DNA of 64,000 nt from Cyanidioschyzon merolae (lineage: Eukaryota). Shown here one piece after another: positions 8,333-63,982 of this stretch. The DNA lies in assembly GCA_000091205.1 (NCBI GenBank), contig AP006490.2; one strand, written 5' to 3'. A program made the position numbers and the translations under genes. The notes beneath the pieces were generated by a model. That model did not search any database and was not told where the DNA came from. It saw nothing but the letters and a program-made list of their open reading frames with translations. Every line of letters starts with the position of its first letter. Position 1 is the stretch's first letter.

Positions 8333-9019
8333 TCACTCACCAAATGTGTTGGTTGCAGGGTGCGCGCTTCGCCACTGCTCGGCCCGCGGTGCGCTGAAAC
8401 ACGACGCGTTGCCCTCGACTTCCCCCAGGATACAACAACGCACGGCTATCCAGTCAGAAACTCGGTTATAATGGATCCAGCGAGCCTCCGAGGCGCCCTG
8501 TCCCGCCGCCTCAATAAGAACTGCCGCCAGTAGGTGCTTACATAACGATATGTCCGCACAGCTACACGAACAGCGTAGAGGGCACGATTCACACAGGTAG
8601 GGCGCCCCTGAAAGCGGTCGACCTGGTCGAACAAGCGCAAACCACTGAGCCTTAGTACAGTGCAGCGTGATGCGTTTTGATTCGCTCGCAGCGAGTTCCA
8701 GTGCTGCATCCAAGGTTGCCGCGTTGCAGCCACTCAGAACATAGAGCGCAACAAGCTGGTCGTTGGTTAGCGTGCCGCGACTTGCTCGAAGCTCTTCAAC
8801 GAGTCGATTGAAAAGCTCTTCCGTCCATAGTTCTGCTAAACGAGCTGCTGCGTCGTCGTCCAACCTGCTGTCTACGTCCATGACAACACAACAGAAAGGT
8901 GTGGGATTTTGAGATCTGACGTCAACGCGACGCGGTCTAGGCACCTCACCGTTGCAGCGAACGCGGCGCTTCCAGTCGTCAGAAGCAGCGTCTCGGAGCT
9001 CTATTTCTGAAACAAGCAA
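8333..9019 (-). CDS. SWIM-type zinc-finger protein, possibly SWS1/ZSWIM7-like (228 aa)
   Basis: CxCxnCxH signature: CPLRCSCSCADISLCKHLLAAV near the C-terminus. Small size fits ZSWIM7-like proteins. The rest is unrecognised. Confidence 0.45.
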   Translation of the reverse strand: MLVSEIELRDAASDDWKRRVRCNGEVPRPRRVDVRSQNPTPFCCVVMDVDSRLDDDAAARLAELWTEELFNRLVEELRASRGTLTNDQLVALYVLSGCNAATLDAALELAASESKRITLHCTKAQWFALVRPGRPLSGAPYLCESCPLRCSCSCADISLCKHLLAAVLIEAAGQGASEARWIHYNRVSDWIAVRCCILGEVEGNASCFSAPRAEQWRSAHPATNTFGE

Positions 9020-18974: not shown

Positions 18975-21743
18975 TCAGTTGCTGTCGTGGACAGTTGCGA
19001 GCACACAATGTTCACCAGTCAGTCGGTAGAGGAGGCGAGCGCGCTCCTCATTGTCTTCGGTTCGCGCTTCCAAGACATATTCCCGCATGTGCGGGGTTTC
19101 CAGAACAGCCGCCTCATCGAGGTCAAAGATCGAGCGCGTCAAGTACTCCAGAAGTGCTGTTTGCACCGGTGCTGCTGTTGGCGAAGCATACGGCCCCGGA
19201 AGCGTCAGCTGCCCATGTTGAAGCAATTCATCTAAAAGCTCCATACGATCCTGGAAGACTCGTCGCAAAAGTTGCACGTGCACCCAAAGCGTCAGCAGTT
19301 GATCGATCTCGTCCATGCTGTGCTGCAGGTGCGCACCCAGAACACCAGTCTCTGGCACAGAGGACTGGAAAAGCGCAGCACACGCAGCCGCTGTGGACTC
19401 GAAACAGCGACGAAAGCCCGTTACATACTGGCGTTCGATGCTAGACTGGCAGCAGATCGCTTGCCAGAGCGCTCTCACACACTGCATAGCCCCGAACTCG
19501 AGCAGTCTCTGCCATTGCTGTCGACTTGGTTCCGAGTCATCCGGAAAGAAAGATGCCTCAGCTTTGGCAGTCGCGTTGCCCGTGGGTGTCCCATTGGCCC
19601 CTGGATTTGCGTCGTACAGGGATGCGCACCGGTGTGGATCGTTTTCAACAGAAAAGATGCCTTCCGTCGAGGTGTCATCCGCGGCAACCGGCATTTGCGC
19701 ATCAGAATCCACTTCAGCCTGGCCTAGCGCCTCAGGATCCGACTTTACAGCATGCTCGCTTGCCGCACCATGCAGTTGCTTTCGTGTGCCGGCCGTCTGC
19801 AGGTGGCCCGGTCTACTGGGTACAGGCGCTGGCTCAGGTGACGGGAGCGAAGCTGAAGCAACCCCTTGCCCAGGGCTGACGGAGCCCAAAGCGCGTCCCG
19901 GCACCCGTACTGTGTATGCCTGCGATCCGAATGCATCGGACGCAAACGCTACTGCCGTTTGCTCAAGAGCTACCGCACCGGCCTCTCCGCGAATTCCAGC
20001 GTTCAGCGCATACACAGGCGTAGCAGAGGGAGCCTGTGCTCCAGCGCTCTTTTCAGATGCGACGGCTCCTCGATTCCTGGCAGCTGGGCATGTGCTTTCC
20101 ACTGGAACCCGTTGAGATTCTACGCTAGCCGCTGCGGCGTCAAGAGGTGTCGCCTCCGGTGTTGATTTCTGCAGATTCGCACTCGCCAGTCTATTCAAGC
20201 TCTCTAGTGTCACACGAAGTTCTGCCGCAACCGTCCCGTCGTTCTCGCTGTGCAGCCCTTTTGGCCATGAATTTGCAATCAAGGCGTCGTCGACGCACGC
20301 TCTCAACGCTTCCAAGAGCGGACAAATCAGGTGCCTTGACGTGAACACCCTGCTGGGCTGCTCTGGATCCAGGGACTGCTCAGTATCACTGATCGATACG
20401 GAGCGGAGGATGCGAATCAGTTGCACAAGTCGTCTGACGAGTTGTCTCAACAGTCGCATCTGTGTCCAGTGTGGCACCGGCATTACTTTCCGTGGCATGC
20501 TGGACATGGGTTCGGCGTCCAGGCTTTCGCTCGGTAACCAGAGGATCCACTCTGGTGCATCCAGCAGATCCATGCTTTCGTAGGCAGCGAGCGACCTCAG
20601 TGGCCATCGCAGCATCAACGCAAGCCGCAGGGCATCCGCATCTACAAGAGGCGATGTGACTAAGCCCTCGGACTCGACCGCTTCGGGTTCCAGCACTACC
20701 TCATAGGTCAGGGCAATCTCAAGCCGCTCTTGTGTGATGCTCCTGTTCGTCTCCGTGGCGCCTGGCGAGAGCGAAGGTGTTACGATATGCTGGCGAAAGA
20801 ATGCCAACAAGGATTCCAGATCCTCGATATTCGCAGGAGGTGTAGATAGCACGCGCATTTCGTAATGCCGCAATGCAAACCCATCACCAATCCCTAGTCC
20901 GCGGTACTCGGTTGCAGCTTCCGTCATCGTAGCGCTTGTTTCAACGAAAACTGTCGTGGGCATCATTGTCATCGAGACGCTGGTGCAGTGCTTACGGTCC
21001 TGGGGCTCAGTCGACTCTACAGAGTGTGTGCTTCCGTTTCGCTTGTTGAGCGTCGTGCACTTCCTCCTGGGACCAGTCTCGACGTCTGAGGTACAGTCGG
21101 GTGTCATACACTGGCGCCCCGCTCCGCGAGACTGCCATAGAACGCACGCGCTTTCACCAGGCTGGTCTTGATCGGTCTGTAGACAGGTCGTGGCAACGAA
21201 GAAAAGTGCGCCAACTGCAGCTTGAACCCAGTCACGATATGACGATAGTGCTGGCGTCAAACGGAGTAGCCAGTACGCAGGAACGCCAAAGAGTCTCACG
21301 AGCCCCAGAGGTTGCGCCACCTGCCAGGTTTCATCGCATACGAGGAAGAGCTCTGCAGACACACGAGTGCTTGTCGATGCGTCTTCCCTGCAGGTCGTCC
21401 AAGGTGTCCAGGGTGTCCGGTCCAGTGCTGGTGGCAGTGCGACCGTCAACGACTGTCGTACGGCTCCGGGTACGGTATTACGAGTTGCCACCTGCGTAAC
21501 CAAGGCCTTTGCGGCTTCTTCTAAAGCGTACACGAGGTCCTCCCAGGGCGTGTTCCGACTGAAGTCTTGCGTGACGCTGGATTCTCTTGGTAATAGCAGG
21601 CGGAAGCCCGGGATACGCAGGTTTGGCCACCGGAAGTCTGCTGGCGTGCCACCGCTGGGCACTTGTTGCTCCTCAGCGTCGGAGCGGCCTGCCATAGGCA
21701 CCTGACAGCCTTGAGGCTGGGCCCGGAATGGACGCCTACGCAC
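18975..21743 (-). CDS. hypothetical protein, 922 aa, no recognised domain
   Basis: Very long uninterrupted ORF with coding-like composition and both acidic and Ser/Ala-rich stretches. Its length argues it is real. No family identified by eye. Confidence 0.55.
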   Translation of the reverse strand: MRRRPFRAQPQGCQVPMAGRSDAEEQQVPSGGTPADFRWPNLRIPGFRLLLPRESSVTQDFSRNTPWEDLVYALEEAAKALVTQVATRNTVPGAVRQSLTVALPPALDRTPWTPWTTCREDASTSTRVSAELFLVCDETWQVAQPLGLVRLFGVPAYWLLRLTPALSSYRDWVQAAVGALFFVATTCLQTDQDQPGESACVLWQSRGAGRQCMTPDCTSDVETGPRRKCTTLNKRNGSTHSVESTEPQDRKHCTSVSMTMMPTTVFVETSATMTEAATEYRGLGIGDGFALRHYEMRVLSTPPANIEDLESLLAFFRQHIVTPSLSPGATETNRSITQERLEIALTYEVVLEPEAVESEGLVTSPLVDADALRLALMLRWPLRSLAAYESMDLLDAPEWILWLPSESLDAEPMSSMPRKVMPVPHWTQMRLLRQLVRRLVQLIRILRSVSISDTEQSLDPEQPSRVFTSRHLICPLLEALRACVDDALIANSWPKGLHSENDGTVAAELRVTLESLNRLASANLQKSTPEATPLDAAAASVESQRVPVESTCPAARNRGAVASEKSAGAQAPSATPVYALNAGIRGEAGAVALEQTAVAFASDAFGSQAYTVRVPGRALGSVSPGQGVASASLPSPEPAPVPSRPGHLQTAGTRKQLHGAASEHAVKSDPEALGQAEVDSDAQMPVAADDTSTEGIFSVENDPHRCASLYDANPGANGTPTGNATAKAEASFFPDDSEPSRQQWQRLLEFGAMQCVRALWQAICCQSSIERQYVTGFRRCFESTAAACAALFQSSVPETGVLGAHLQHSMDEIDQLLTLWVHVQLLRRVFQDRMELLDELLQHGQLTLPGPYASPTAAPVQTALLEYLTRSIFDLDEAAVLETPHMREYVLEARTEDNEERARLLYRLTGEHCVLATVHDSN

Positions 21744-29157: not shown

Positions 29158-32100
29158 TCAGCCGGGCTCAGATACGTTCGAGCGAAAGAATGCCCCCTTC
29201 GAGATCCAGGCTTTGACGCGTGCCCGCCGTCGCTCCCGGCACCGTCGGAGCAAATGACCCAACGCCTGCCCGTGTGCTATGCGGCTCGCTATACAGGCGA
29301 TATCCTCAAATGCAACGCATGCAGCGCAGGCGTCTGCATCGTTCTCTGGACTGGCGTGCCAAGTGGTGTAGGGCGTCGCGTCGACGACATGCGCATCCAG
29401 TGCGCTCTCGTAGCATCGATACTGGCAATGTTCAAAGTGAATGAGCGGATACACCGGGCTAATGCGTGCATCGGTGCCATTCGATGACCGCGAATCTAGT
29501 GCCAGACAACGAGGTGGATGCACTGCGTCCTCGTAGCGCAGCCTGATGACAAGGAGCGGTCCGTCCGGGTCGTCGGCAGCGTATGCGTACCGCTGCGCCT
29601 GGCGTATATCGCCGCCGCGCAGCGCACCCACGTACAGCAGGCGCAAGCCAGGTGCTGCGTCAAACGTATCGAACGGGGTTAGCGTTTCCAGCCCCGATAC
29701 CCGGATGCGTTGCCGAGGCCAGTGGACATATACGCGACGCGTGAACACACGAGCACCCAACTTGCCGTCAGTCTCGAGTGGAACGATATTCACACCGAAT
29801 TTGGCGGAGCCTAGTAGCCGCCACACCCCGGGCTGTGCAGATACCGGCACGACACAACAGAGACGCACGAGCGAGCCCTCGTATTTGGTTCGCAGGAGCT
29901 GTGCTAGGTCCAGTGGACAATCCCAAACCTCTACCTTGGCTAAATGTTTGCCCAGCGGGTCCGCCACGCCAAGCGTTAACAAGGAGCCTATTTTTGGCGG
30001 GAATTTGTCTACGTGTCCTGATGCGTGCACCGCATCCGTGCACGCATCGCTTTCGAGATGCTCAGGGTGCCCGCACGCAGACCAGGCGCCAGGCGTACGA
30101 GGCGCCGCATCTGGGCTCCACGAAAATATGGGTACAGGGCAGGCATGGAGTTGCCCGTGTTCAGCATCTGCGACGATCTGTGCGGTGTAGGTTGCGCTCA
30201 GAAGGTATCTTGGCTTTCCGGGGAGAGTTCCCGGCTGACGGGGTGAAACATAGGCCCCATTTTTGTCCAACTGTCGTTGTTGTTGGTGGTGGTGTAGCGT
30301 TTCCGCGACGAACCTTAGTGGATGGACTCGGTGCAGGACGACGTCCAGGGCGGGAACGGTGCCGCCCAAGGGATCGGTCTGTGGCAGGGTCACCGCCATC
30401 AATGCGGATTGCACACGACCTATTGCCTGATGAACGGAATCGCCGATACGTTTCATCGACCAGCGCTGCTTCTGGAACAGTGGCGCTGGATGGACGCTGT
30501 TCAGGGACAGGGTTAAAGAGATTCGCTCGATCTGTGCAGCCGCTGTACGGATGGAGCGCCTGCTGGCATGGTGCGGTGCCGCAGCGCTGCACTCTACCCG
30601 AGCCGCACCGATGTAAAGACAACCTGCCCTGGTCCATAGGCGATGAGGTGCAGAAACCGATCTGTAGCCAATCTGCGGTCGATATTGTAACGCTCGCTCC
30701 GTTGCTGCGAATACGCGCAGGTGATGCAGCCACGCTTCAACGGGCTGGGTACCTTTCGCAAAAACCAAGTAATGCCCGTCGCAAAGCAATAAGCATACAT
30801 GCTCAGTCTCGATGCTCGTTTCGCAATCGTAGCCTGGAACGAGGAGGAGTCTCATCGGGGGCAGATAACTAAAAGCGTCTGGAGCTCGAGCAATCGCTTC
30901 AAACATGGAACTAGAGCGTTGCTGTTCCATGCGACGATGGCAACGCCAGAAGCGCCCGATGAGTTGATACAGCACTTGCCATACGGTTAAGACGCGACCG
31001 AATAGTGCTTGCGGCACAGCGAGCTCTATGAGACTCATCTCGTAAATAATCAAGCACCAGTAACGACGAAACCAAGCAAGGGAACCTACTCGATTGACAA
31101 CCTGGGAGGCATTAACAGTCGGCTCGAAATCTTGCTGAGACACCAGCCAAAAGGTGTCCGTTGGATCCGGCTTTGGGTTTTCTTGAACGGTATCGTCAAC
31201 GCAGAAGAAACAGAAGAAATCCCACGCATCTAGGACTGCACCTTGGGCACGCAGTTTTGTAACAAGGCGCTCAGTGGCAGTGTCGTCGCGCCCAGTCGCA
31301 TGCAGCGACTCGAGTTTCGTGATCAGGGCATCCGCATCGTTGCGAGAGCACTTGAACCGGAAACGTATGCTTTCCCAGGGCGCAAACGCCGCACGAATCG
31401 CATGCACGGAAGGATGTTCCAGGTCGATATCACATGGAGGGCGCGGAAAACACTTTGGAACCAAAGCTGGCGACCAGTATCCCGTGCGGCGTGCCGCATC
31501 GCCGCGGAAGGCAGCATGTGCACCAGCCTTTGGGTCATGTTCAGGGCAGACAGGCAGTGACTGGATCTCTGGTGCATCCCCTGCTCCATGAGCATCGGTA
31601 CTTGTCTTGCTTCGATGGATGCTTGTCATTGGTGCCTCAGCCTTTGACGGTGGCGTGAAGCGTCGGGCCCGCGAACTGAGCGGTCTTGCAGGCGCTTCTA
31701 CCGAAGTCACGTCTGCAAACGGTGGTCGAGCGTGACAAACGGATATTCCATTGTCTTGATCGTTGATGTTTCCCGCCCGTTTCGAATTGTCCATGGAGCA
31801 CGGCGGCCTTTTTCGTGGAAGATTACTATTTGAAGCGGGCCAGATGCATCGCTTGCTGGGAGCTGCGTATGCATTGACGCACGAGCTCGGGCCCATATGC
31901 GCTACTTGTGGCTCATTCATTCCACAATCAATAGACATAGATGAAGCGTCTTGGTTGCGGAACTCGCATGGAAAAGCTCGCGAATTTGCAAACTCTTGCC
32001 GTATGTGACAATCCTCTATGGATTTGATCTCCGAAAACGGCGATGCATCACAAGCGACTGGTGGACGATTCTCTGCCTCCTCGCTAAAGAGTCGCGCGAC

Positions 32101-33144
32101 TCGGGCGAGAGAAGCGCTCGATGCGACTTGCAGCTGCTGACCGTGACCCGTTGAGAAACCAGTTGCAGCGGCTGTAGCTCGATGTGATGCAGCTCGGGCA
32201 TCCTTGTCTGCGCCACCTGGAGCGGGATCTTCATGAAAGAGTCGCGCGACTCGGGCGAGAGAAGCGCTCGATGCGACTTGCAGCTGCTGACCGTGACCCG
32301 TTGAGAAACCAGTTGCAGCGGCTGTAGCTCGATGTGATGCAGCTCGGGCATCCTTGTCTGCGCCACCTGGAGCGGGATCTTCATGAAAGAGTCGCGCGAC
32401 TCGGGCGAGAGAAGCGCTCGATGCGACTCGCAGCTGCTGACCGTGACCCGTTGAGAAACCAGTCCTCATTGCAGACTTTGCTTTGTCAAAGTTCATTGCC
32501 TCTGCCCGTGTCCCCATGTGCTGTAAATCACCGACACGTTCGACTCCGGTTGCTTCTGTTGATCGGGTAAACACGCGCAACAGTTTCTCATTAGCAGGGC
32601 ACGTACCCGTCGCTTTGTCATCGATGCGAGCGCGCCCTGGAGACGCGTTCGGTGCGTGAACTAGCGATAATGCTGCACAACCAGCACCATATCGTTCCTT
32701 ATCTCCTAAGGGTGTGTCAAAAATAGCACTAGTTTCTAGGAACCTGGTCGGTTTTCTACCAAACGCGACATCCGCTGTACTGCCTTCATTATCGGATACT
32801 TGCGACTTGAAGTCACAGTGGTTGGGTTCCACGTTCCAGCTGTGTATTCCTTCGTGTCGGAGATCAGCGTCGCTCCGACCGAGTTCCTGCGTTATGCTCG
32901 TCGGTGTGCAGGTATCTACGCGGTCGACGATAAGCGACTGGGGCGGGTTTTCCATAGGCGCCGACCCAGCCCCCGTTTGCGCCGCTGCGTGCGGGAAACG
33001 GCTATGTTCTCCCAAGGCGACAAGATAGCAAGCCAACAAACCACTATTCAGGGCACTTTCGCTCTTCTTGAGACGTTCCGCTCGAGTCTCACACCGCAGT
33101 CGAAGCAGACAACCGACGTTCTGCTGGCCTTCAGCGCGACACAC
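29158..33144 (-). CDS. BRCA2-like protein with three near-identical BRC repeats, 1328 aa
   Basis: TGFSTGHGQQLQVASSASLARVARLFHE occurs three times, with a degenerate fourth. It matches the BRC consensus F-x-T-A-S-G-K-x-i-x-v-S-x-x-s-L-x-k-a-x-x-l-F. About 1000 further residues could hold a DNA-binding domain. I could not verify the OB folds by eye. Confidence 0.55.
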   Translation of the reverse strand: MCRAEGQQNVGCLLRLRCETRAERLKKSESALNSGLLACYLVALGEHSRFPHAAAQTGAGSAPMENPPQSLIVDRVDTCTPTSITQELGRSDADLRHEGIHSWNVEPNHCDFKSQVSDNEGSTADVAFGRKPTRFLETSAIFDTPLGDKERYGAGCAALSLVHAPNASPGRARIDDKATGTCPANEKLLRVFTRSTEATGVERVGDLQHMGTRAEAMNFDKAKSAMRTGFSTGHGQQLRVASSASLARVARLFHEDPAPGGADKDARAASHRATAAATGFSTGHGQQLQVASSASLARVARLFHEDPAPGGADKDARAASHRATAAATGFSTGHGQQLQVASSASLARVARLFSEEAENRPPVACDASPFSEIKSIEDCHIRQEFANSRAFPCEFRNQDASSMSIDCGMNEPQVAHMGPSSCVNAYAAPSKRCIWPASNSNLPRKRPPCSMDNSKRAGNINDQDNGISVCHARPPFADVTSVEAPARPLSSRARRFTPPSKAEAPMTSIHRSKTSTDAHGAGDAPEIQSLPVCPEHDPKAGAHAAFRGDAARRTGYWSPALVPKCFPRPPCDIDLEHPSVHAIRAAFAPWESIRFRFKCSRNDADALITKLESLHATGRDDTATERLVTKLRAQGAVLDAWDFFCFFCVDDTVQENPKPDPTDTFWLVSQQDFEPTVNASQVVNRVGSLAWFRRYWCLIIYEMSLIELAVPQALFGRVLTVWQVLYQLIGRFWRCHRRMEQQRSSSMFEAIARAPDAFSYLPPMRLLLVPGYDCETSIETEHVCLLLCDGHYLVFAKGTQPVEAWLHHLRVFAATERALQYRPQIGYRSVSAPHRLWTRAGCLYIGAARVECSAAAPHHASRRSIRTAAAQIERISLTLSLNSVHPAPLFQKQRWSMKRIGDSVHQAIGRVQSALMAVTLPQTDPLGGTVPALDVVLHRVHPLRFVAETLHHHQQQRQLDKNGAYVSPRQPGTLPGKPRYLLSATYTAQIVADAEHGQLHACPVPIFSWSPDAAPRTPGAWSACGHPEHLESDACTDAVHASGHVDKFPPKIGSLLTLGVADPLGKHLAKVEVWDCPLDLAQLLRTKYEGSLVRLCCVVPVSAQPGVWRLLGSAKFGVNIVPLETDGKLGARVFTRRVYVHWPRQRIRVSGLETLTPFDTFDAAPGLRLLYVGALRGGDIRQAQRYAYAADDPDGPLLVIRLRYEDAVHPPRCLALDSRSSNGTDARISPVYPLIHFEHCQYRCYESALDAHVVDATPYTTWHASPENDADACAACVAFEDIACIASRIAHGQALGHLLRRCRERRRARVKAWISKGAFFRSNVSEPG
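32087..32462. repeat. Tandem repeat, 150-bp unit x2.5, coding the BRC repeats (near-identical at DNA level)
   Basis: Units start at about 32101, 32251 and 32401 and are almost identical (tcgggcgagagaagcgctcgatgcgacttgcagctgctgaccgtgacccgttgagaaacc...). The period of 150 is a multiple of 3 and in frame with the BRCA2-like ORF. Confidence 0.9.
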
Positions 33145-43229: not shown

Positions 43230-45548
43230 TCACTGCATACGGCACTCGCGGCGCTGACCGCTGAGCGTACCACCACTACTACTACTACTACTACTCCGAT
43301 AGCGCAGCGCAAACTGCCGAACACAGAGCGCGATCAGATCCCGCTGTTCCGCACTGTTCGCTCGAAAGGCAAAGGTATGTTTCAGGGTGAGGCTGAACGC
43401 ATGCGCATCCGTCTCATCGAGGGCGACTTTGATGAAGGACGTCCAAGACTTCTTCTCTTCCGTAATCCAGTGACCCTCGCGGGGGTCAAAGTCCTCCGTC
43501 GCATGATAAAGGGATTCAGTCCAAGGATCAGCGGCACCAGCACCAGCACCAGCACCGGATGCTTGGTACGACTGCGCCGGGCGCTGAACGCTCAGATAGC
43601 GCTTGTGGACGAGGATACAGCGTGGAGCGCCCGACGCCTCGTCGCGAACCAGAAAAGCAGCGCGACCTTCGAGCATCCACACCGAGAGGCGTTCCTCCAT
43701 GGTCGGATCTACCTCGATTGGTGCAGTGAACGCTTGCAGCGCGGGTAGCCCCGCGGTTGCCTCGGTAACCGCGGCAAGTCGCATACCCACATCATCCGCT
43801 GTCGTTCGATAGCGATAGCCTTCAGCGCGGTAGGCGTATGGTGTAATGGACGCTGTTCGACGCGACAAATGATACCAGCGCACTCTTGGACCGGAACTCG
43901 ATTCGAGACCGTTCATCACTGCTGTCAGCGTACGATTATTGAAACATTCACCCTGGATGACCAGACGGGCATCCGCTTGGATGCGATCACTGGGAATCTC
44001 GGTACGTTCGGAGCGCTCTGGTCGAGTACCCTGCGAATGTTCATGCAACGTTGCTGTTGCTGTTGCTGCTGCTGCTTCTGCTGCAGGTGCTCCGCCTCGC
44101 GCCAAGCTCCCTGCTACGCTTGGTGAGAGATGTTGTGAGGTTTCGTGTCCATGCGGCTGCGCTTGGCATCCTAGTTTGCGAGAAGGAGTTAGCGGCTCAA
44201 TCTGGTCTTCGTGGAGCGTTTCGATGTCCTCGGGAACGCGTTCAGCGCCGCGTCCACCGGGGGTGTCGGCAGCACGCCAGGCACTGAGCCTGGCAGACGA
44301 TGTGGCTGGTTGCGCCTCTACAGCAGCGAGATCAAGCGGTGCGACCGTCTCTATCGATTGTTTGCTCCAGCTCGATGCTAGCCTAGCAGCGGCTGGGCGT
44401 GCCCTTCGAACGGAAGCGCCGCTTTCCAGGCGTGTACTGTGAGAAGCTGACGGTGTCTGTGACAAGCGCATCTCACGAAGCGGCACGCCTGGGGCATCGT
44501 TCTCGGAAAGCTCGCGGGGATGCGTCCAGGGCATCTCTGGTATTTGGGCGTTATTCTTCAAGGAGACGGATCCCGAGGTGCGTTCTGGGGAAACACCACT
44601 GGCAACCGCGCAGATGCTGAGGTCCGAAGTACCACCGGACGACCCTGGCACGGATTCCGGTACCGCAGGTTCAGCACCCGCACGTGAAACGATGCCTATC
44701 GGGTGTCGCTGTGCTGGTGCAGTGGCATCGGGACTTGCAGGTAACGCACTGGTAACGAGTGCTTGTTTTTGTGCACGCAAAACCTGAACCAAGTCTGCCT
44801 GGATCGCATTCTCCTCATCAAGGCCCTGGAGACGTTGCAGCTGTTGATCTCGCTGAGTTTTCAGCTTGTGAAACTCCTGCTCTCCTGCTTGAATTTCATT
44901 TTCTAAAGAAGAAAGTTCGGCAGCCAGACGTGTCTTCTCGCTTTCGCCGGCGGCAATCTGAGCAGTTCGTTCAGCGTTCTCTCGACGCAGTCGCTCGATC
45001 TCAGACTGAAGATGCTCCAGTCTTCGGCGCAGTGGTTCAGTCATTCGCGTGACCTGTTGCCAGGCTCCAATACGCGTCTGGAGGAGTTCGCGTTCGCGCA
45101 GGTATCGTTGCCGCATAGCCTCGCGCTCGCTGAGCTGGTGTAACAGCGCTCGTAGCGTTTCATCTTCGCGTGGTTCCTCACCACCAGCTAGCTCTAAACG
45201 CTGCCGTGTCAGGTCCAAAACCTCTTCATACGCTGCATTGAGTCGCTCTAAAGCAGCGTTTGTATTCTGGAGGAGACGAAGCACCGAGCTCTCCAGAGCG
45301 CGTTTTGTTGTTGCCGCTGATCCTAGAGAGCTTGTTCGACGCTGGTTCACTGCAACCTGCACTTGAGACAGACTTCGTTCCCGTTCCGTCAAAAGTTGTT
45401 CCAAGTTCGCTAGACGTGTACGCTCCGCGGCGATTTGGGGCTCCAGGGTTTCTACGCTCGGGTCGAGAAGGCGACTGGGCTCCGCGCTCGTCTCTGCTTC
45501 TGAGCGCAGCGGCGGATGCTTCAAGGAAGCGTCCCAGCTTGCATCCAT
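43230..45548 (-). CDS. hypothetical coiled-coil protein, 772 aa
   Basis: Long ORF. The N-terminal half is heptad-like and Glu/Arg/Leu/Gln-rich. The C-terminal part is globular and unrecognised. Confidence 0.55.
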   Translation of the reverse strand: MDASWDASLKHPPLRSEAETSAEPSRLLDPSVETLEPQIAAERTRLANLEQLLTERERSLSQVQVAVNQRRTSSLGSAATTKRALESSVLRLLQNTNAALERLNAAYEEVLDLTRQRLELAGGEEPREDETLRALLHQLSEREAMRQRYLRERELLQTRIGAWQQVTRMTEPLRRRLEHLQSEIERLRRENAERTAQIAAGESEKTRLAAELSSLENEIQAGEQEFHKLKTQRDQQLQRLQGLDEENAIQADLVQVLRAQKQALVTSALPASPDATAPAQRHPIGIVSRAGAEPAVPESVPGSSGGTSDLSICAVASGVSPERTSGSVSLKNNAQIPEMPWTHPRELSENDAPGVPLREMRLSQTPSASHSTRLESGASVRRARPAAARLASSWSKQSIETVAPLDLAAVEAQPATSSARLSAWRAADTPGGRGAERVPEDIETLHEDQIEPLTPSRKLGCQAQPHGHETSQHLSPSVAGSLARGGAPAAEAAAATATATLHEHSQGTRPERSERTEIPSDRIQADARLVIQGECFNNRTLTAVMNGLESSSGPRVRWYHLSRRTASITPYAYRAEGYRYRTTADDVGMRLAAVTEATAGLPALQAFTAPIEVDPTMEERLSVWMLEGRAAFLVRDEASGAPRCILVHKRYLSVQRPAQSYQASGAGAGAGAADPWTESLYHATEDFDPREGHWITEEKKSWTSFIKVALDETDAHAFSLTLKHTFAFRANSAEQRDLIALCVRQFALRYRSSSSSSSGGTLSGQRRECRMQ

Positions 45549-54083: not shown

Positions 54084-55349
54084 TCAGATATTCTCACATT
54101 CCGGATGCGTTCCCTCGATGGCGATCCCGTTCATTTTGCAGCGCTCTCGAATAATCATTTCTGCGAGAATCATATCTTCCGGGGTCGTGATTTTGATATT
54201 CGCGTATTCGCCCATAGTAATTTTCACAGGATAATGCTTGTCGTCGAGCAACTCCACGACGCTCACGTCGTCTGTTACGCGTAGGCCCCGGCGCATGGCG
54301 TTCTCGAAGCCCTGACGCAGAAGACGAGCCCGAACCACTTGTGGTGTTTGGATCTCCCACAACCTGCTGCGATCGATAGTCCGCCTGACAAACTGTCCAT
54401 CCTCGCTCTCCTTAATCGTCGCTTTCACTGGCACGCCAATTGCTGCGGCCCCGTAGATCGAGGCGTCCCGCAGGCACGACCGTATGCAGGAGCGTGAAAC
54501 AAGTGGTCGCGCCGCGTCGTGAACACACACGAGGATGTCGTCTGTTTCATCTTTTTCACGATCCACCGTATCTGGGACGAGGGCGAGTCCAGAGCGAACT
54601 GAGTCTTGCCGCTCTAAGCCCGGGTCCGCGAATAAAATCCGCTTGTCGCGCAAAACATAGTTTCCAAAATACGCTTCACGATATCGTTTTTCAACGACGA
54701 TAATTATCTGAGTCACCTCGGGCAAGCCCAGAAAGAGCAACAGAGAACGTTCGGATACAGTCTTGCCACAGAGCTGCAGAAACTGCTTTGGCCGGTCGGC
54801 ACGCATGCGGCTGCCCAGGCCCCCCGCCAGCAGAATCACCGACACCGGCTGCCGAACCGGCGGCGGCACCAATCCGTTTCCCAAGTCATCCATCGGCCCG
54901 AACGCCGGCAGTATAGACTCTCCATTTTCTAGAAGAGTCATAAACTGCAGACGCTCGCTTGTAAAGTTCCGACGCCGAACAGATCCAACCTGGGTGCACC
55001 AGCCTTGCCGTGGTGGCCGTGAGCGCCGCTCTGCGAACGCGCCACTGCTCACTGCGGACGTTGCCACTGAGGCGCGACAACTGCAACGCCCGGGAGCTCT
55101 AACTGGTGCCTGCAGACCGTGTACTACGAAGTTCAACGGTGTCATCAACGTAACTTGTGAAATGTGGAGCTTTTCGTCGGTCAAGTCCCCGAGGGAACCC
55201 GCGGGACCTCTACCTAACAGCCGGAGCGTGCGTGGCGCATTAATGTGTGCGCTCCGCCGGTCGGAGCGCGCGCGCACGCGTACACCATCCAGGAGGCTGC
55301 GATTGGTGCAGGTGCTGGTGCAACGCATTCTGTAGGCGCGGATGCACAT
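54084..55349 (-). CDS. ispD: 2-C-methyl-D-erythritol 4-phosphate cytidylyltransferase (IspD, MEP pathway) with a roughly 130-aa N-terminal extension (candidate plastid transit peptide). The annotated first ATG lies inside the 120-bp satellite.
   Basis: VSVILLAGGLGSRMRADRPKQFLQL..., ILVCVHDAARPLVS, LWEIQTPQVVR, HYPVKITMGEYANIKITTPEDM. These are the IspD family blocks. The first 27 or so codons of the ORF merely translate the tandem-repeat unit (MCIRAYRMRCTSTCTNRSLLDGVRVRA), so the real start is probably downstream, for example the Met at MRCTSTC or later. Confidence 0.85.
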   Translation of the reverse strand: MCIRAYRMRCTSTCTNRSLLDGVRVRARSDRRSAHINAPRTLRLLGRGPAGSLGDLTDEKLHISQVTLMTPLNFVVHGLQAPVRAPGRCSCRASVATSAVSSGAFAERRSRPPRQGWCTQVGSVRRRNFTSERLQFMTLLENGESILPAFGPMDDLGNGLVPPPVRQPVSVILLAGGLGSRMRADRPKQFLQLCGKTVSERSLLLFLGLPEVTQIIIVVEKRYREAYFGNYVLRDKRILFADPGLERQDSVRSGLALVPDTVDREKDETDDILVCVHDAARPLVSRSCIRSCLRDASIYGAAAIGVPVKATIKESEDGQFVRRTIDRSRLWEIQTPQVVRARLLRQGFENAMRRGLRVTDDVSVVELLDDKHYPVKITMGEYANIKITTPEDMILAEMIIRERCKMNGIAIEGTHPECENI

Positions 55350-60427: not shown

Positions 60428-63400
60428 CTATTCACCGAGGTCGGTCAGCACCATCCGCGGAGCAATAGCCATGGACATGAGCTCCTGGAACAGTAGTTTG
60501 CAGGCATACGGAATCTCGACGGCGGCAATTCGCGTCTTGTTCTTACATCCCCGGCATTCAAAAATAGAGCGTCGGAGATCAGCGATAGCAATGAGGCCGC
60601 ACCTTTCGCACACATGCACGCGATACTTATCGCTCACGTCGCACATGCGCTCTTTGAGTACTGCTGAGGCGCCGTACGCCACAAATACATCTTTCTCCAT
60701 CTCACCGATTCGTAGGCCACCGCCTCGACTTTTGCCCTCAACGGGCTGACGCGTAAGCACCTGCACGGCACCGCGAGCACGGGCTCCCAATTTTTGGTAG
60801 ACCACATGACGGAGACGTTGGTAGTAGTTCACGCCCATAAAGATGGCCGCATTCATCGGGCGACCCGTTTGACCGTTGAAGAGCAGCTCCCAGCCGCGCG
60901 GATCGTAGCCATGGCGAACAAGCTCCCGTCCAATGGCGTCGACGGTGACTGGTGTGAACGCAGTTGCGTCGCCCTCGACCCCGCTGAGCGCACACACTTT
61001 GCCCAGGAGCGCCTCAATCAAATGTGCAATCGTCATTCGACTGGGTACAGCGTGCGGGTTCATGATAATGTCCGGCCGGATACCGTCCACGTTGAACGGA
61101 AGATCCTCCTCGGGCATGCAGAGGCCCATGGTGCCCTTCTGACCGTGTCGGGATGCAAACTTGTCCCCGACTTGCGGGATGAGCTCCGTTCGAACGCGCA
61201 CTTTCACCATTCGCGTTCCCGCCTCTCCCGTACAGATGAGCACCTTGTCGGTAACACCTCGCTCGGTGCGCTTCATGACCAGAGAGCAGTCTTTGCGCGT
61301 TCGCATACCACTTAGGGCGGCCATACCTGAGGCCGTTTCCTGTTCAGCCGCGTCGACTGCGGCACGGGATGCTCCCAGTGGTGCGGTTTTACCCACGAGC
61401 ACATCACCACCGCGAACACGTTCGCCCACACCGATCAAGCCGTCGGATTCGAGTTTTGAGTAGGCGTGTGCTTCTTTCATGCCCAGGGTGACCGCCGGAT
61501 CCGGTTTGCTGATCGTTTCCTGCTGCCCGAAGAGTTTCTTCTGTTCCTCCTCTTTGAAGGTCTTGTAATAGACAGAGCGAAAGAGACCGCGATCCACTGC
61601 AGCTTGGCTCATGATGAGTGAATCCTCCTGATTGTAACCAGAGTAGCACGCAATAGCCACCACAGCGTTGATACCGGCGGGAAGCGTGCGAAACTGCAAA
61701 TGTTCCATAACGCGCGTCGTTACCAGTGGTTTCTGGGGATAATACAGCACATGCGCCATGGTGTCCATACGCAAATTATAATTCGTCAAGTACATACCCA
61801 TCGCTTGCTTGCCCATGGCCGATTGATAGGTGTTACGCGGTGACTGGTTGTGATCCGGGAAAGGAATAATCGACGCACAGACACCGAAAATCATGGAAGG
61901 ATGGATCTCCATATGCGTATAGGTCGCGTGGTCGCCACTCGTCGCCAAATGCTCTTGGTCCATGGCAATCATTACGGTCTCTTCCTCGTTCACGTCGAGA
62001 TATTCGACCAGACCTTCACGAACAAGTCGCGAAAAGGTATAACCGGTGGTTTCATAGTCTCGAAGCAGGTCGATATGTTGCTTGCGGATCCGCAACAAGT
62101 TCGTTTCCGTATCCACGATGAATAGTGGCCGGCAGACGCGTCCAGCGTCTGTTCCAATACGCAGCTCACCGTGGCTGACATCAAACACAATGCTGACCTC
62201 GTCAGCGATCTCACCGGATCGACGTAGCACCCGCAGCGCGGTGACGAGCTCTTCGGGTCGTGGATGAATGCCCACCCAGGAGCCGTTCAGAAAAACTTTT
62301 GTTTGGCGCTTAATTCGTTCGGCGGTTACTTCGTACAGGGGCTCCATCTCGAAGTTGTACAGCATCTCGAGGATATCTGCCACGGGAGTGCCGACGCTGA
62401 TGTACGCCATGAGCGCGAGGTTTTTCACGAGGCCACAAGACTGACCCTCGGGGGTCTCAGCTGGGCAAATCATGCCCCACTGGGTGTTGTGGAGTTGGCG
62501 AGGTTTCGCGAGTTTGCCCTCTCGTCCAATGGGCGAGTTCAAGCGTCGCAGGTGCGATAACGAGGCCGCATATGTTAGGCGATTCAGAACCTGTGATACA
62601 CCTGTTCGAACCGCTGCTTTGCGGTCTGCACGCCAGTTACCCGTTGCGATTGCGTATTTGAGGTTGTCAGTTATTGTGCGACCTTTCACAGCTAACGCAA
62701 TATTCAACTCCTTGCCCATGTCAAGTTGATGCTGCAGAATCGAACGCGCATCCTTGACGACTTTTTGGAACAGCTGACGAAAGAGCCCCGTGAGCAATGG
62801 ACCCGCTAGATCCAGCCGCTTCAGGCCGTAATGGTCGCGATCATCTTCTTCGCGGCGCCCGAGAACAGTAGCCAACAACTGGTGGGTCATGTACCCCAAA
62901 AACCAGGCCTTGGCAGGTTCGTACGCACCGATACCGATGTGCGGCAGGAACTCGAGCTGCAGAACCTCACGGGCATAGCGAATGCGTCGGTCGCGAGTGG
63001 CACCAACAGAATTGCCTCGCTTGCCAATAAAATCCAGAGCCAAGTTTTGATCAGTAATCACTGAGCCCATATCCAGAGATGGCATCAAAAGCGTCTGCAT
63101 TTCCTCATCATCGGTGTCGTAAATGACACGTTCCATTATCTCCCGATCAGACTCGAGGCCCAGGGCGCGGAAGACGACCGCCAGTGGAATATCGGCACGG
63201 ATATACGGCAAGCTGACCATAATGCATTGACCGCTCTGACCTTTGACGCCACCGCGGGTGATTTTGACCTGAGTTGTTCGCGCAGGCTTATTGCCGCGAT
63301 CGAGAACAGATCGACACTCTGCCACATGTGAGTACGGGGCCGTTGATGCTCGCTTGAAAACGTAGACCGCATTGTTGCCCATACGCTCCTGGGCAATCAG

Positions 63401-63982
63401 CGCTTTCTCCGAGCCATTGATGATGAAATAGCCTCCCTGATCGTAAGGGCATTCGCCGATGTTCTGCAGTTGGTACTCTGTGAGGCCATTCAGATGGCAA
63501 AAATCCGAGTGCAACATCATCGGAACCCGACCGAGGTAGAGATTGCGAGCTGGATGTCGAAACTCGCGCTCCTCCTTGGTAGCGGGATCTATTTCGATGT
63601 CGATGCGCGTGACCTCCACGTAAAGCGGCGACGAGTACGACAGGTTGCGCAACCGCGCCTCGTGTGGGAAAAGCACCGTAGGCGTGCCGTCAACCTCCGT
63701 GAAAGTTGGCTTTCCAGCGCTCAACTGACCAAAGGAAATAATGGTCCTCGTCCCCTCGGGAGGCGCTCTTTTGCCTGGCACGTGCTGCGGCTGGGGACGA
63801 AGAACAATATCCGGCGTCTCGTCTACGATTGTTTGACACGCGTTCCCTATGAACTCGTTGAACGAGTCCAGTTGCTGCTTTACGAGACCCTTCTCTCGAA
63901 AGTGAGCAGATATAACGTCCCAGATGTCATCGGCCGAGAGCTGATCTTCTGCGGAAACGGATGCTCGCTGCGGCTTTGCCAT
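60428..63982 (-). CDS. RPB2: DNA-directed RNA polymerase II second-largest subunit (RPB2), 1184 aa, intronless
   Basis: N-terminus MAKPQRASVSAEDQLSADDIWDVISAHFREKGLVKQQLDSFNEF. Internal blocks GYFIINGSEKALIAQER and GQKGT.G. C-terminal Zn ribbon and tail ERCGLIAIADLRRSIFECRGCKNKTRIAAVEIPYACKLLFQELMSMAIAPR. The window ends 18 nt upstream of the ATG. Confidence 0.95.
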   Translation of the reverse strand: MAKPQRASVSAEDQLSADDIWDVISAHFREKGLVKQQLDSFNEFIGNACQTIVDETPDIVLRPQPQHVPGKRAPPEGTRTIISFGQLSAGKPTFTEVDGTPTVLFPHEARLRNLSYSSPLYVEVTRIDIEIDPATKEEREFRHPARNLYLGRVPMMLHSDFCHLNGLTEYQLQNIGECPYDQGGYFIINGSEKALIAQERMGNNAVYVFKRASTAPYSHVAECRSVLDRGNKPARTTQVKITRGGVKGQSGQCIMVSLPYIRADIPLAVVFRALGLESDREIMERVIYDTDDEEMQTLLMPSLDMGSVITDQNLALDFIGKRGNSVGATRDRRIRYAREVLQLEFLPHIGIGAYEPAKAWFLGYMTHQLLATVLGRREEDDRDHYGLKRLDLAGPLLTGLFRQLFQKVVKDARSILQHQLDMGKELNIALAVKGRTITDNLKYAIATGNWRADRKAAVRTGVSQVLNRLTYAASLSHLRRLNSPIGREGKLAKPRQLHNTQWGMICPAETPEGQSCGLVKNLALMAYISVGTPVADILEMLYNFEMEPLYEVTAERIKRQTKVFLNGSWVGIHPRPEELVTALRVLRRSGEIADEVSIVFDVSHGELRIGTDAGRVCRPLFIVDTETNLLRIRKQHIDLLRDYETTGYTFSRLVREGLVEYLDVNEEETVMIAMDQEHLATSGDHATYTHMEIHPSMIFGVCASIIPFPDHNQSPRNTYQSAMGKQAMGMYLTNYNLRMDTMAHVLYYPQKPLVTTRVMEHLQFRTLPAGINAVVAIACYSGYNQEDSLIMSQAAVDRGLFRSVYYKTFKEEEQKKLFGQQETISKPDPAVTLGMKEAHAYSKLESDGLIGVGERVRGGDVLVGKTAPLGASRAAVDAAEQETASGMAALSGMRTRKDCSLVMKRTERGVTDKVLICTGEAGTRMVKVRVRTELIPQVGDKFASRHGQKGTMGLCMPEEDLPFNVDGIRPDIIMNPHAVPSRMTIAHLIEALLGKVCALSGVEGDATAFTPVTVDAIGRELVRHGYDPRGWELLFNGQTGRPMNAAIFMGVNYYQRLRHVVYQKLGARARGAVQVLTRQPVEGKSRGGGLRIGEMEKDVFVAYGASAVLKERMCDVSDKYRVHVCERCGLIAIADLRRSIFECRGCKNKTRIAAVEIPYACKLLFQELMSMAIAPRMVLTDLGE

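Follow-up and report, generated by a model that had tools for sequence, protein, structure and literature searches.

As judged from sequence profiles and repeat anatomy, CMH106C, a gene on chromosome 8 of Cyanidioschyzon merolae 10D annotated so far as hypothetical, is the BRCA2 orthologue of this alga. We assign a probability of roughly 0.8 to the reading in which CMH106C is BRCA2, its BRC cores have been homogenised by continuing exchange at the DNA level, and the three-core allele carried by strain 10D arose through one unequal exchange.

The gene lies in a minus-strand open reading frame that appears in the ORF list at 29158-33144 of the window, by which we mean the whole 64-kb stretch of DNA analysed here. 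An earlier note on this DNA had described a BRCA2-like ORF of 1328 aa; the frame stands, while the length has been corrected, since 1328 aa is the mechanical GTG-to-stop frame and both the annotated protein XP_005536072.1 and all relatives begin at M64 (window position 32955), giving 1265 aa (Table 1). A record of the identical protein, BAM79786.1/XP_005536072.1 (“hypothetical protein CYME_CMH106C”), falls within the 90% cluster of the ORF. Members of this cluster that are 823 aa long were considered as a sign of assembly breaks at the repeat, an idea rejected on finding that contig L005 has an intact two-core N-terminus; the shorter length arises because the gene caller picked a downstream Met. 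The gene order COQ7 / CMH106C / NAD_binding_10+CIA30 is kept in C. merolae, Cyanidiococcus, the L003 lineage and Cyanidium, which supports the orthology of the four cyanidialean genes. Among the first three of these lineages, the motif LETSAIFDTPLG stands out in an N-terminus that is otherwise unalignable. A kinetoplastid origin of the window was considered and discarded, since its gene strands alternate and an exact RPB2 match points to C. merolae 10D. Rfam and tRNA scans of its full 64 kb returned no matches.

Table 1. Features of CMH106C and of the SWIM ORF, in window coordinates.
Feature	Position	Strand	Description and basis
CDS CMH106C	29158..32955	(-)	1265 aa + stop; ORF list and protein-record match
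N-terminal motif LETSAIFDTPLG	32704..32739	(-)	conserved in C. merolae, Cyanidiococcus and the L003 lineage
BRC core 1, G variant, TGFSTGHGQQLRVASSASLARVARLF	32386..32463	(-)	unit alignment; Pfam PF00634
Spacer copy 1, HEDPAPGGADKDARAASHRATAAA, 72 nt	32314..32385	(-)	unit alignment
BRC core 2, A variant	32236..32313	(-)	unit alignment; comparison with environmental contigs
Spacer copy 2, identical to spacer copy 1	32164..32235	(-)	unit alignment
BRC core 3, A variant, then unique sequence (SEEAENRPP...)	32086..32163	(-)	unit alignment
Diverged BRCA2 DNA-binding domain	29371..31083	(-)	ORF residues 688-1258; profile A3 vs PDB and hhalign
Signature motif GGTVPALDVVLHRVHPLRF	30310..30366	(-)	aligns with GGNVGCVDIIVQRVYPLQW of mouse BRCA2 (1MIU)
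SWIM ORF	8333-9019	(-)	annotated product starts at 8881, 182 aa, CMH096C

The claim that the BRC repeats are carried on near-identical 150-bp tandem units is borne out by the structure of the array. A single array, spanning window 32086-32463, was detected by Tandem Repeats Finder, with a period of 150, 2.5 copies, 99% matches, no indels and a score of 749. Its BRC-coding cores, three of 78 nt each, show 99-100% identity (77-78/78), and its two spacers of 72 nt are the same in sequence. Between unit 1 (32314-32463) and unit 2 (32164-32313), just 1 of 150 positions varies, a G/A difference at position 35 that changes Arg to Gln, and unit 3 (32086-32163) consists of the first 78 nt only, identical to unit 2 and diverging afterwards. 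The encoded peptide, TGFSTGHGQQL[R/Q]VASSASLARVARLF, occurs three times in the ORF, at residues 229, 279 and 329. Derivation of the 72-nt spacer from the flank on either side of the array was also considered and rejected, its similarity to the upstream and downstream sequence being at the shuffled level (p=0.55, 0.81); a spacer unrelated to either flank implies that the two-core state did not arise simply by a fresh duplication in tandem.

Core 2 and spacer copy 2 of 10D are missing in every one of six conspecific contigs from the environment, whose divergence from 10D is 0.46-0.63%, with a single indel in each, corresponding to one 150-bp unit. These contigs, which come from metagenome assemblies, probably of short reads, in which the collapse of three units would give the same form, uniformly read G-core, spacer, A-core, as compared with G-core, spacer, A-core, spacer, A-core in 10D. 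The order in 10D is the product expected of a crossover 3' of core position 35. Starting from a two-core allele, one unequal exchange in which core 2 recombined with core 1 would thus suffice to generate the three-core allele, and in the 10D line it would have duplicated “spacer plus core” exactly. An assembly artefact, in the form of either a spurious third unit in 10D or environmental arrays of at least three units collapsed by metagenome assemblers, is in our estimation an unlikely source of this difference. Such a collapsed array would be indistinguishable from the two-unit contigs seen, and one Logan contig of the L003 lineage, a one-core form found beside two-core assemblies that could be either a real allele or an assembly collapse, illustrates that such differences arise between assemblies. 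Against an artefact, however, the six contigs come from different samples and agree, the junction diagnostic of three or more units (A-core then spacer) is absent from the whole metagenome-contig collection in which a control junction is present, and outgroup genome-scale contigs carry two cores. The 10D genome, moreover, is a finished assembly of Sanger reads, which would be long enough to cross the 378-nt array. An artefact would in any case bear only on the polymorphism, not on the identity of the gene or on concerted evolution.

Comparison across species places the array in a longer history. The syntenic orthologues of Cyanidiococcus and the L003 lineage carry two BRC cores each, and the start-to-start spacing of cores is exactly 150 nt in C. 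merolae, Cyanidiococcus and L003 alike. Within a gene, the cores of these three lineages are 99-100%, 94% and 97-98% identical in DNA, as against 53-72% between species, and lineage-specific amino-acid changes are common to the cores of one gene. The outgroup Cyanidium has two BRCs in the same place, although these are diverged (58% identical, with a spacing of 126 nt); the presence of two BRCs there as well implies that the duplication predates the split. The earlier note had offered either very recent duplication or ongoing concerted evolution as the explanation for repeat identity. Within a comparison of three or four lineages only, the excess of within-gene identity (94-100%) over that between species appears to favour concerted evolution, with the addition of one recent extra unit in 10D.

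Independent, very recent tandem duplications of a single BRC in each lineage, with no long-term homogenisation, would also leave cores that resemble one another, and we consider this history decidedly unlikely. High within-gene identity does have the look of young duplication, the third 10D unit is truly a very recent duplication, and the array of Trypanosoma brucei was interpreted as a recent expansion by Hartley and McCulloch. Yet three separate events would be needed, each yielding the exact 150-nt phase and each ending the repeated core of 78-84 nt at one and the same 3' boundary (…LF/LL); the spacer copies neither flank, and Cyanidium already has two BRCs at that place. Under continuing homogenisation, the ancestral Cyanidioschyzon/Cyanidiococcus state would have consisted of two cores in a fixed 150-nt (50-aa) phase with a fast-evolving, unrepeated spacer between them, and each lineage would have kept its own two cores alike while drifting from the cores of other lineages. 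Unequal sister-chromatid exchange, replication slippage and/or gene conversion between the 78-84-nt cores may have maintained their near-identity.

The identification of the gene as BRCA2-like, proposed in the earlier note, draws on both halves of the protein. Pfam PF00634 (BRCA2 repeat) matches three stretches of the ORF (E=1.9e-9; 37.2 bits against a whole-protein cut-off of 20.3), and single C. merolae repeats score between E=4.7e-5 and 2.3e-3 (17.8 bits at E=2.3e-3); the repeats of Cyanidiococcus and L003, scored alone, fall short of the Pfam BRC model. The best match of a cyanidialean BRC profile in the PDB is 8C3N_B, a human BRCA2 BRC peptide, at only E=0.17, and a phmmer search of the PDB with the BRC region produced chance WD40 (Ciao1) matches only. 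For the C-terminal half, the outcome depends on the type of search. Pfam BRCA-2_helical against the single CMH106C sequence gives E=0.14, below threshold, the DNA-binding domain being too diverged for single-sequence Pfam models, whereas a profile built from four cyanidialean orthologues (A3) matches 1MIU_A (E=3.4e-11), 1MJE_A (1.5e-9) and 1IYJ_B (8.4e-9) in the PDB, all of them structures of the BRCA2 DNA-binding domain (mouse, rat). These matches fall in two collinear stretches, and nothing else is significant. An hhalign comparison with BRCA2 of the fungus Mortierella, a reference that itself carries Pfam OB1 at 1.5e-32, gives a probability of 87.8% and E=3.3e-6 over 462 collinear columns. 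The remaining residues thus hold a DNA-binding domain of BRCA2 type, and the repeats belong to the BRCA2 family rather than to another.

In these profiles, the matched region takes in the end of the helical domain and the OB folds that follow. AlphaFold2, applied to the C-terminal 773 residues with a four-sequence alignment, returned an unusable model (mean pLDDT 37.4, pTM 0.28), and the OB folds of CMH106C are accordingly those predicted from sequence profiles only. The motif GGTVPALDVVLHRVHPLRF is invariant in all four cyanidialean orthologues, among which the signature pattern GGxVxxLDVxxxRVYPL is conserved; its mouse counterpart, GGNVGCVDIIVQRVYPLQW, adjoins the OB1 domain, lying just after it. 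The UniRef name of the Cyanidium orthologue is “BRCA2 OB1 domain-containing protein”. With the whole ORF as query, phmmer found no match in the PDB and a word-indexed homology search recovered only the ORF's own cluster and a weak match to Mortierella BRCA2, to which repetition with the orthologue profile added nothing; one candidate from an exhaustive search, P0035, a TPR/STAND NTPase, was dropped as a spurious low-complexity match. The weakness of these single-sequence searches, together with the reference annotation as a “hypothetical protein”, is what would be expected if CMH106C were not BRCA2, with an F-x-T-x-G repeat from some other family and a spurious C-terminal similarity. This is highly improbable, however, given that the profile matches three independent BRCA2 structures and nothing else, that the hhalign match is collinear across 462 columns, that the BRC repeats lie N-terminal to the domain as they do in BRCA2, and that the signature is conserved.

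By homology with characterised BRCA2 proteins, the N-terminal half of CMH106C would be disordered, and each of its BRC modules would engage a single RAD51 monomer. In place of the canonical FxxA, the first module of the algal repeat has FxxG; this and its LFxE module would be the counterparts of FxxA and LFDE in human BRC4. The C-terminal helical/OB-fold half would bind single-stranded DNA, enabling the protein to load RAD51 at breaks. The C. merolae genes for RAD51 and for DSS1, a partner expected of a BRCA2 DNA-binding domain, lie outside the window. BRC cores are under functional constraint, and six positions (G, F, G, G, L, L) are invariant across all cyanidialean repeats. Yet purifying selection on a RAD51-binding peptide, however strong, combined with codon preference but without DNA-level exchange, is a vanishingly improbable cause of core identity and is already refuted by the synonymous-site comparison, since codons at conserved amino acids are 92-100% identical between cores of one gene (100% in C. 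merolae) and 17-47% identical between species, an excess that selection at the protein level cannot explain, and since the cores share lineage-specific amino-acid changes and the unconstrained 72-nt spacer was duplicated unchanged in 10D. Homogenisation by exchange remains our preferred reading, and the third repeat may have a functional effect of its own. Strain 10D is noted for efficient homologous gene targeting. A broader scheme, to which we attach only slight credence, would have the BRC modules of Cyanidioschyzon/Cyanidiococcus long homogenised at their 50-residue phase by the very pathway that BRCA2 controls, with a copy number of 1-3 that segregates in natural populations and tunes recombination, and with the three-BRC allele of 10D aiding gene targeting.

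Several of these features have counterparts in other BRCA2 systems. According to the earlier note, the BRC repeats of most lineages diverged from one another in ancient times, a generalisation to which T. brucei and T. congolense (PMC2408642) and Drosophila yakuba (PMC2882388) are published exceptions. Both trypanosomes carry near-identical tandem BRC arrays (Hartley & McCulloch 2008, PMC2408642; Trenaman et al. 2013, PMC3553974), and in T. congolense the copy number is 2 or 3 depending on the strain, for which ongoing expansion and contraction was proposed (PMC2408642). C. merolae may likewise vary between 2 and 3, the environmental figure being derived from metagenome contigs, but its array is far shorter than the 12-15 units of T. 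brucei, and its last unit shares the core only and not the spacer, unlike trypanosome arrays. The retention of phase and homogenisation in at least three diverged algal lineages also argues for long-term concerted evolution and not one recent expansion, and a link to antigenic variation would not be expected in a free-living alga. In dmbrca2 of D. yakuba, unequal crossing-over between BRC repeats, as proposed here for C. merolae, produced a hybrid repeat, and long and short forms segregate (Bennett & Noor 2010, PMC2882388), with the contribution of gene conversion left unresolved by those authors (PMC2882388). The clustered repeats of D. yakuba differ by 17% in amino acids and increased from 3 to 5, whereas the C. 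merolae cores are 99-100% identical and one unit was added. With mammalian BRCA2 (1MIU, 1IYJ; BRC4-RAD51), the algal protein shares N-terminal BRCs and a C-terminal helical/OB DNA-binding domain, the same two-module logic of the repeat (F-x-x-small residue ... L-F-x-E) and a GGxVxxxDVxxQRxYP signature after OB1. It differs in being about one third of the mammalian length, in reading FxxG for FxxA and in having a DNA-binding domain that single-sequence Pfam models miss; in mammals, unlike the alga, the eight BRCs are dispersed and of ancient divergence, each being conserved with its own orthologues.

These results assign a function to a “hypothetical” gene of C. merolae and to its Cyanidiococcus orthologue, and they add a third eukaryotic supergroup to those in which BRC repeats are near-identical in DNA, as in trypanosomes, or vary in number through unequal exchange, as in Drosophila, with cross-species evidence that supports sustained concerted evolution over a one-off expansion. 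Near-identical tandem BRC arrays being already known from T. brucei, T. congolense and D. yakuba, the advance is incremental, within a class of system already described. As a haploid with hardly any introns that is readily modified by homologous recombination, C. merolae would allow alleles with one, two or three BRCs to be built and compared, and such alleles bear on why a BRCA2 protein should retain more than one BRC repeat (compare PMC12803100, PMC3553974). A literature search returned no mention of CMH106C and no description of a red-algal BRCA2, and the supplements of a survey of Fanconi-anaemia genes in C. merolae (PMC2730050) do not name the gene.

A second putative recombination factor, a SWIM-finger ORF, had been placed by the earlier note some 20 kb from CMH106C and likened to Sws1/ZSWIM7. 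A homology search with this ORF recovered cyanidialean relatives only, and PDB searches, a profile search included, yielded nothing relevant; neither provided a link to Sws1/ZSWIM7. Pfam SWIM scores E=0.57 in CMH096C and 0.0087 in its orthologue, both under the cut-off. A distance of 20 kb in a eukaryote implies no functional link between the SWIM ORF and the BRCA2 gene. The SWIM assignment itself probably holds: the CxCx7CxH motif is conserved between the C. merolae and Cyanidiococcus proteins, and the CMH096C product is named “SWIM-type domain-containing protein” in UniRef.

Our analyses support the reading of CMH106C as a BRCA2 orthologue, so far unannotated, with BRC modules under concerted evolution and, in the Cyanidioschyzon merolae reference strain 10D, one additional unit. 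The gene falls in the same cluster as BAM79786.1/XP_005536072.1, “hypothetical protein CYME_CMH106C”, of 1265 aa. The 1328-aa frame proposed in an earlier note does exist, but its upstream GTG start is mechanical, as M64, at window position 32955, is the first residue of the annotated protein and of its relatives from environmental sequence. Many gene calls from metagenome and Logan assemblies in the CMH106C cluster (members P0008-P0016) are 823-aa products beginning at an internal Met, and yet one such contig (L005:1900-6194) holds the complete N-terminus including both BRCs. Gene callers place the start of this eukaryotic gene wrongly, so the length differences among cluster proteins have no biological basis. 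For the Cyanidiococcus orthologue, gene models differ between two assemblies (1184 aa vs 1195 aa), and the gene range L002:3001-6646 has no direct translation to the corresponding protein P0032, a mismatch that points to a predicted intron or to differing models close to the N-terminus and in the region of residue 950.

Features of the CMH106C region and of neighbouring ORFs
Feature	Position	Strand	Remark
CMH096C, SWIM ORF	8333-9019	-	annotated product 182 aa from 8881; UniRef “SWIM-type domain-containing protein”
Long ORF	18975-21743	-	922 aa; no Pfam family at E<=0.001
CMH106C	29158-32955	-	
Proline-rich WSPxxVPRxFPRPPP	31435-31476	-	immediately upstream of DNA-binding domain
BRC repeat array	32086-32463		
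Motif LETSA[IV][FL]DTPLG	32704-32739	-	
Long ORF	43230-45548	-	772 aa; no Pfam family at E<=0.001
IspD ORF	54084-55349	-	MEP-pathway cytidylyltransferase
RPB2 ORF	60428-63982	-	exact match to BAM79794.1, C. merolae strain 10D

The assignment to BRCA2 draws on both ends of the protein. Pfam PF00634 (BRCA2 repeat) matches three stretches (37.2 bits, cut-off 20.3, E=1.9e-9), and any one repeat alone at E=4.7e-5 to 2.3e-3, so that the repeat is a BRC and does not belong to another F-x-T-x-G family. The core motif reads F-S-T-G ... L-F-H/S-E; whereas the two RAD51-contacting modules of human BRC are FxxA and LFDE (PMC9162458), the first module is FxxG in C. merolae and in every cyanidialean repeat. 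Searched as a single sequence, CMH106C yields BRCA-2_helical only at E=0.14, a weak match to a Mortierella BRCA2 and no match in PDB; the Pfam check proposed in the earlier note thus succeeds for the repeats but not for the helical domain. Searched exhaustively with HMMER, 1.8 billion representative sequences yielded three orthologues, at 44, 43 and 34% identity. These come from Cyanidiococcus yangmingshanensis (KAF6001458.1), a third cyanidialean lineage (L003) represented by metagenome and genome-scale contigs, and Cyanidium caldarium (KAK4538662.1, UniRef name “BRCA2 OB1 domain-containing protein”). All four cyanidialean genes are flanked by COQ7 on one side and an NAD_binding_10/CIA30 gene on the other, and they are therefore positional orthologues. 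A C-terminal profile built from the four matches mouse and rat BRCA2 DNA-binding-domain structures in PDB (1MIU_A, E=3.4e-11; 1MJE_A, 1.5e-9; 1IYJ_B, 8.4e-9) over two collinear stretches, the next match being only at E=0.28, and hhalign against the Mortierella BRCA2, itself carrying Pfam OB1 at 1.5e-32, gives a probability of 87.8% (E=3.3e-6) over 462 collinear columns. The invariant motif GGxVPALDVvLHRVyPLRF aligns to GGNVGCVDIIVQRVYPLQW of mouse BRCA2. An AlphaFold2 model from the four-sequence alignment reached pLDDT 37, too poor for use. With high confidence, then, we assign CMH106C as the C. merolae BRCA2 orthologue, its remainder containing a BRCA2-type DNA-binding domain of predicted helical/OB fold.

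Two further motifs lie outside these domains. LETSA[IV][FL]DTPLG is kept in the C. merolae, Cyanidiococcus and L003-lineage proteins, whose N-termini are otherwise unalignable, and could be a candidate partner-binding motif; the proline-rich motif is conserved in three orthologues and partially in that of Cyanidium.

Tandem Repeats Finder reports a single array with a period of 150, 2.5 copies, 99% matches and 0 indels, bearing out the near-identical 150-bp tandem BRC units described earlier from sequence. In each unit, a 78-nt core for TGFSTGHGQQL[R/Q]VASSASLARVARLF is joined to a 72-nt spacer for HEDPAPGGADKDARAASHRATAAA. A single base in 150 separates unit 1 from unit 2 (G/A, Arg to Gln), and unit 3 equals unit 2 over its first 78 nt, with unique sequence thereafter. 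Compared with the 72 nt on either side of the array, the spacer shows no greater similarity than shuffled sequence does.

Relative to the 10D coding sequence, six environmental conspecific contigs (L001, L005-L009) are 0.46-0.63% divergent, and each has just one indel, of one 150-bp unit. With G-core and A-core denoting the variants at core position 35, all six read G-core, spacer, A-core, vs G-core, spacer, A-core, spacer, A-core in 10D. The three-core state is derived, because outgroups have two cores; its layout is what a single unequal exchange or slippage event would be expected to produce if it joined core 2 of a two-core allele to core 1 and the crossover lay 3' of core position 35. No A-core-to-spacer junction (GCTGCAAGTCG...CTCTTTCATGAAGATCC), diagnostic of at least three units, was found in the entire metagenome-contig collection; a control junction was. 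Metagenome assemblers can collapse three-unit arrays, and a collapsed array would look exactly like the two-unit form. BRC copy-number polymorphism is likely but not proven. In the L003 lineage, a 19-kb Logan contig encodes a protein with a single BRC (P0038), in which 50 aa of the two-core P0033 and P0037 are missing, exactly one core and one spacer; two-core assemblies exist alongside it, and the one-core form is either the reciprocal, contracted allele or an array collapsed in k-mer assembly.

The orthologues extend the pattern beyond one species. Cyanidiococcus has two 84-nt cores that are 94% identical to each other, and the L003 lineage two 83-nt cores at 98%; between species, core identity is only 53-72%. 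Core start-to-start spacing is exactly 150 nt in C. merolae, Cyanidiococcus and the L003 lineage, and across orthologues the spacers are constant in length (24 aa) without being conserved in sequence. Cyanidium has two BRCs at the same position, 58% identical to each other and 126 nt apart. These alignments are read most simply as an old two-BRC architecture whose cores have probably been homogenised repeatedly, as DNA and separately in each lineage, i.e. concerted evolution; of the two processes offered in the earlier note, recent duplication and concerted evolution, the orthologue cores favour the latter, the extra unit in 10D being derived. Three independent duplications would also yield near-identical cores within each gene, but they would have to share phase and boundaries, and are unlikely. 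Protein-level selection as the cause of core identity is excluded by synonymous sites: at residues with the same amino acid, codon identity is 92-100% between cores of one gene vs only 17-47% between species.

By homology, the BRC cores would imitate the oligomerisation motif of RAD51 and so bind its monomers, and the helical/OB domain would bind single-stranded DNA and DSS1, the protein thereby bringing RAD51 to breaks that have been resected. How the repeats change we infer from sequence patterns. In the two-core state, the 78-84-nt cores are the sole homology, so that exchanges would start and stop inside them; this confinement would explain the sharp core boundaries. Out-of-register exchange would yield three-core and one-core alleles, and repeated gain and loss of units, whether or not joined by gene conversion, could spread variants among cores.

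The phenomenon has clear precedents. Strains of Trypanosoma congolense carry either two or three units that closely resemble one another, for which ongoing expansion and contraction was proposed (PMC2408642), and the D. yakuba BRC array grew from three to five repeats via unequal crossing-over, with short forms segregating in the population (PMC2882388). The C. merolae case places the same phenomenon in a third eukaryotic supergroup; what cyanidialeans add is phase-locked homogenisation common to at least three diverged lineages. The searchable literature contains no description of a C. merolae or red-algal BRCA2, no use of the tag CMH106C and no paper joining “BRC repeats” with “concerted evolution”; a 2009 Fanconi-anaemia gene survey includes C. 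merolae among the species in one figure, itself unreadable in the accessible version. The annotation of CMH106C is improved, and the effect of BRC copy number becomes tractable to study in this gene.

As to the surroundings, the window consists of long intron-free ORFs on alternating strands at ~56% GC, and Pfam identifies typical eukaryotic proteins among them, including Raptor, RPB2, trehalase, a plastid-type IspD and a CRT-like transporter. The ORF singled out earlier as a possible neighbouring recombination factor keeps its SWIM-type label through its UniRef name and its CxCx7CxH motif, also present in the Cyanidiococcus orthologue. The 20-kb gap to CMH106C, with several genes between, has no functional meaning. 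Pfam SWIM is below threshold (E=0.57 for CMH096C, 0.0087 for the Cyanidiococcus orthologue), neither homology search nor PDB profile search gave a specific link to Sws1/ZSWIM7, and CMH096C may be a candidate Sws1/ZSWIM7-like protein. In the IspD ORF, an N-terminal extension of ~168 residues precedes the catalytic domain and is consistent with a plastid-targeting presequence.
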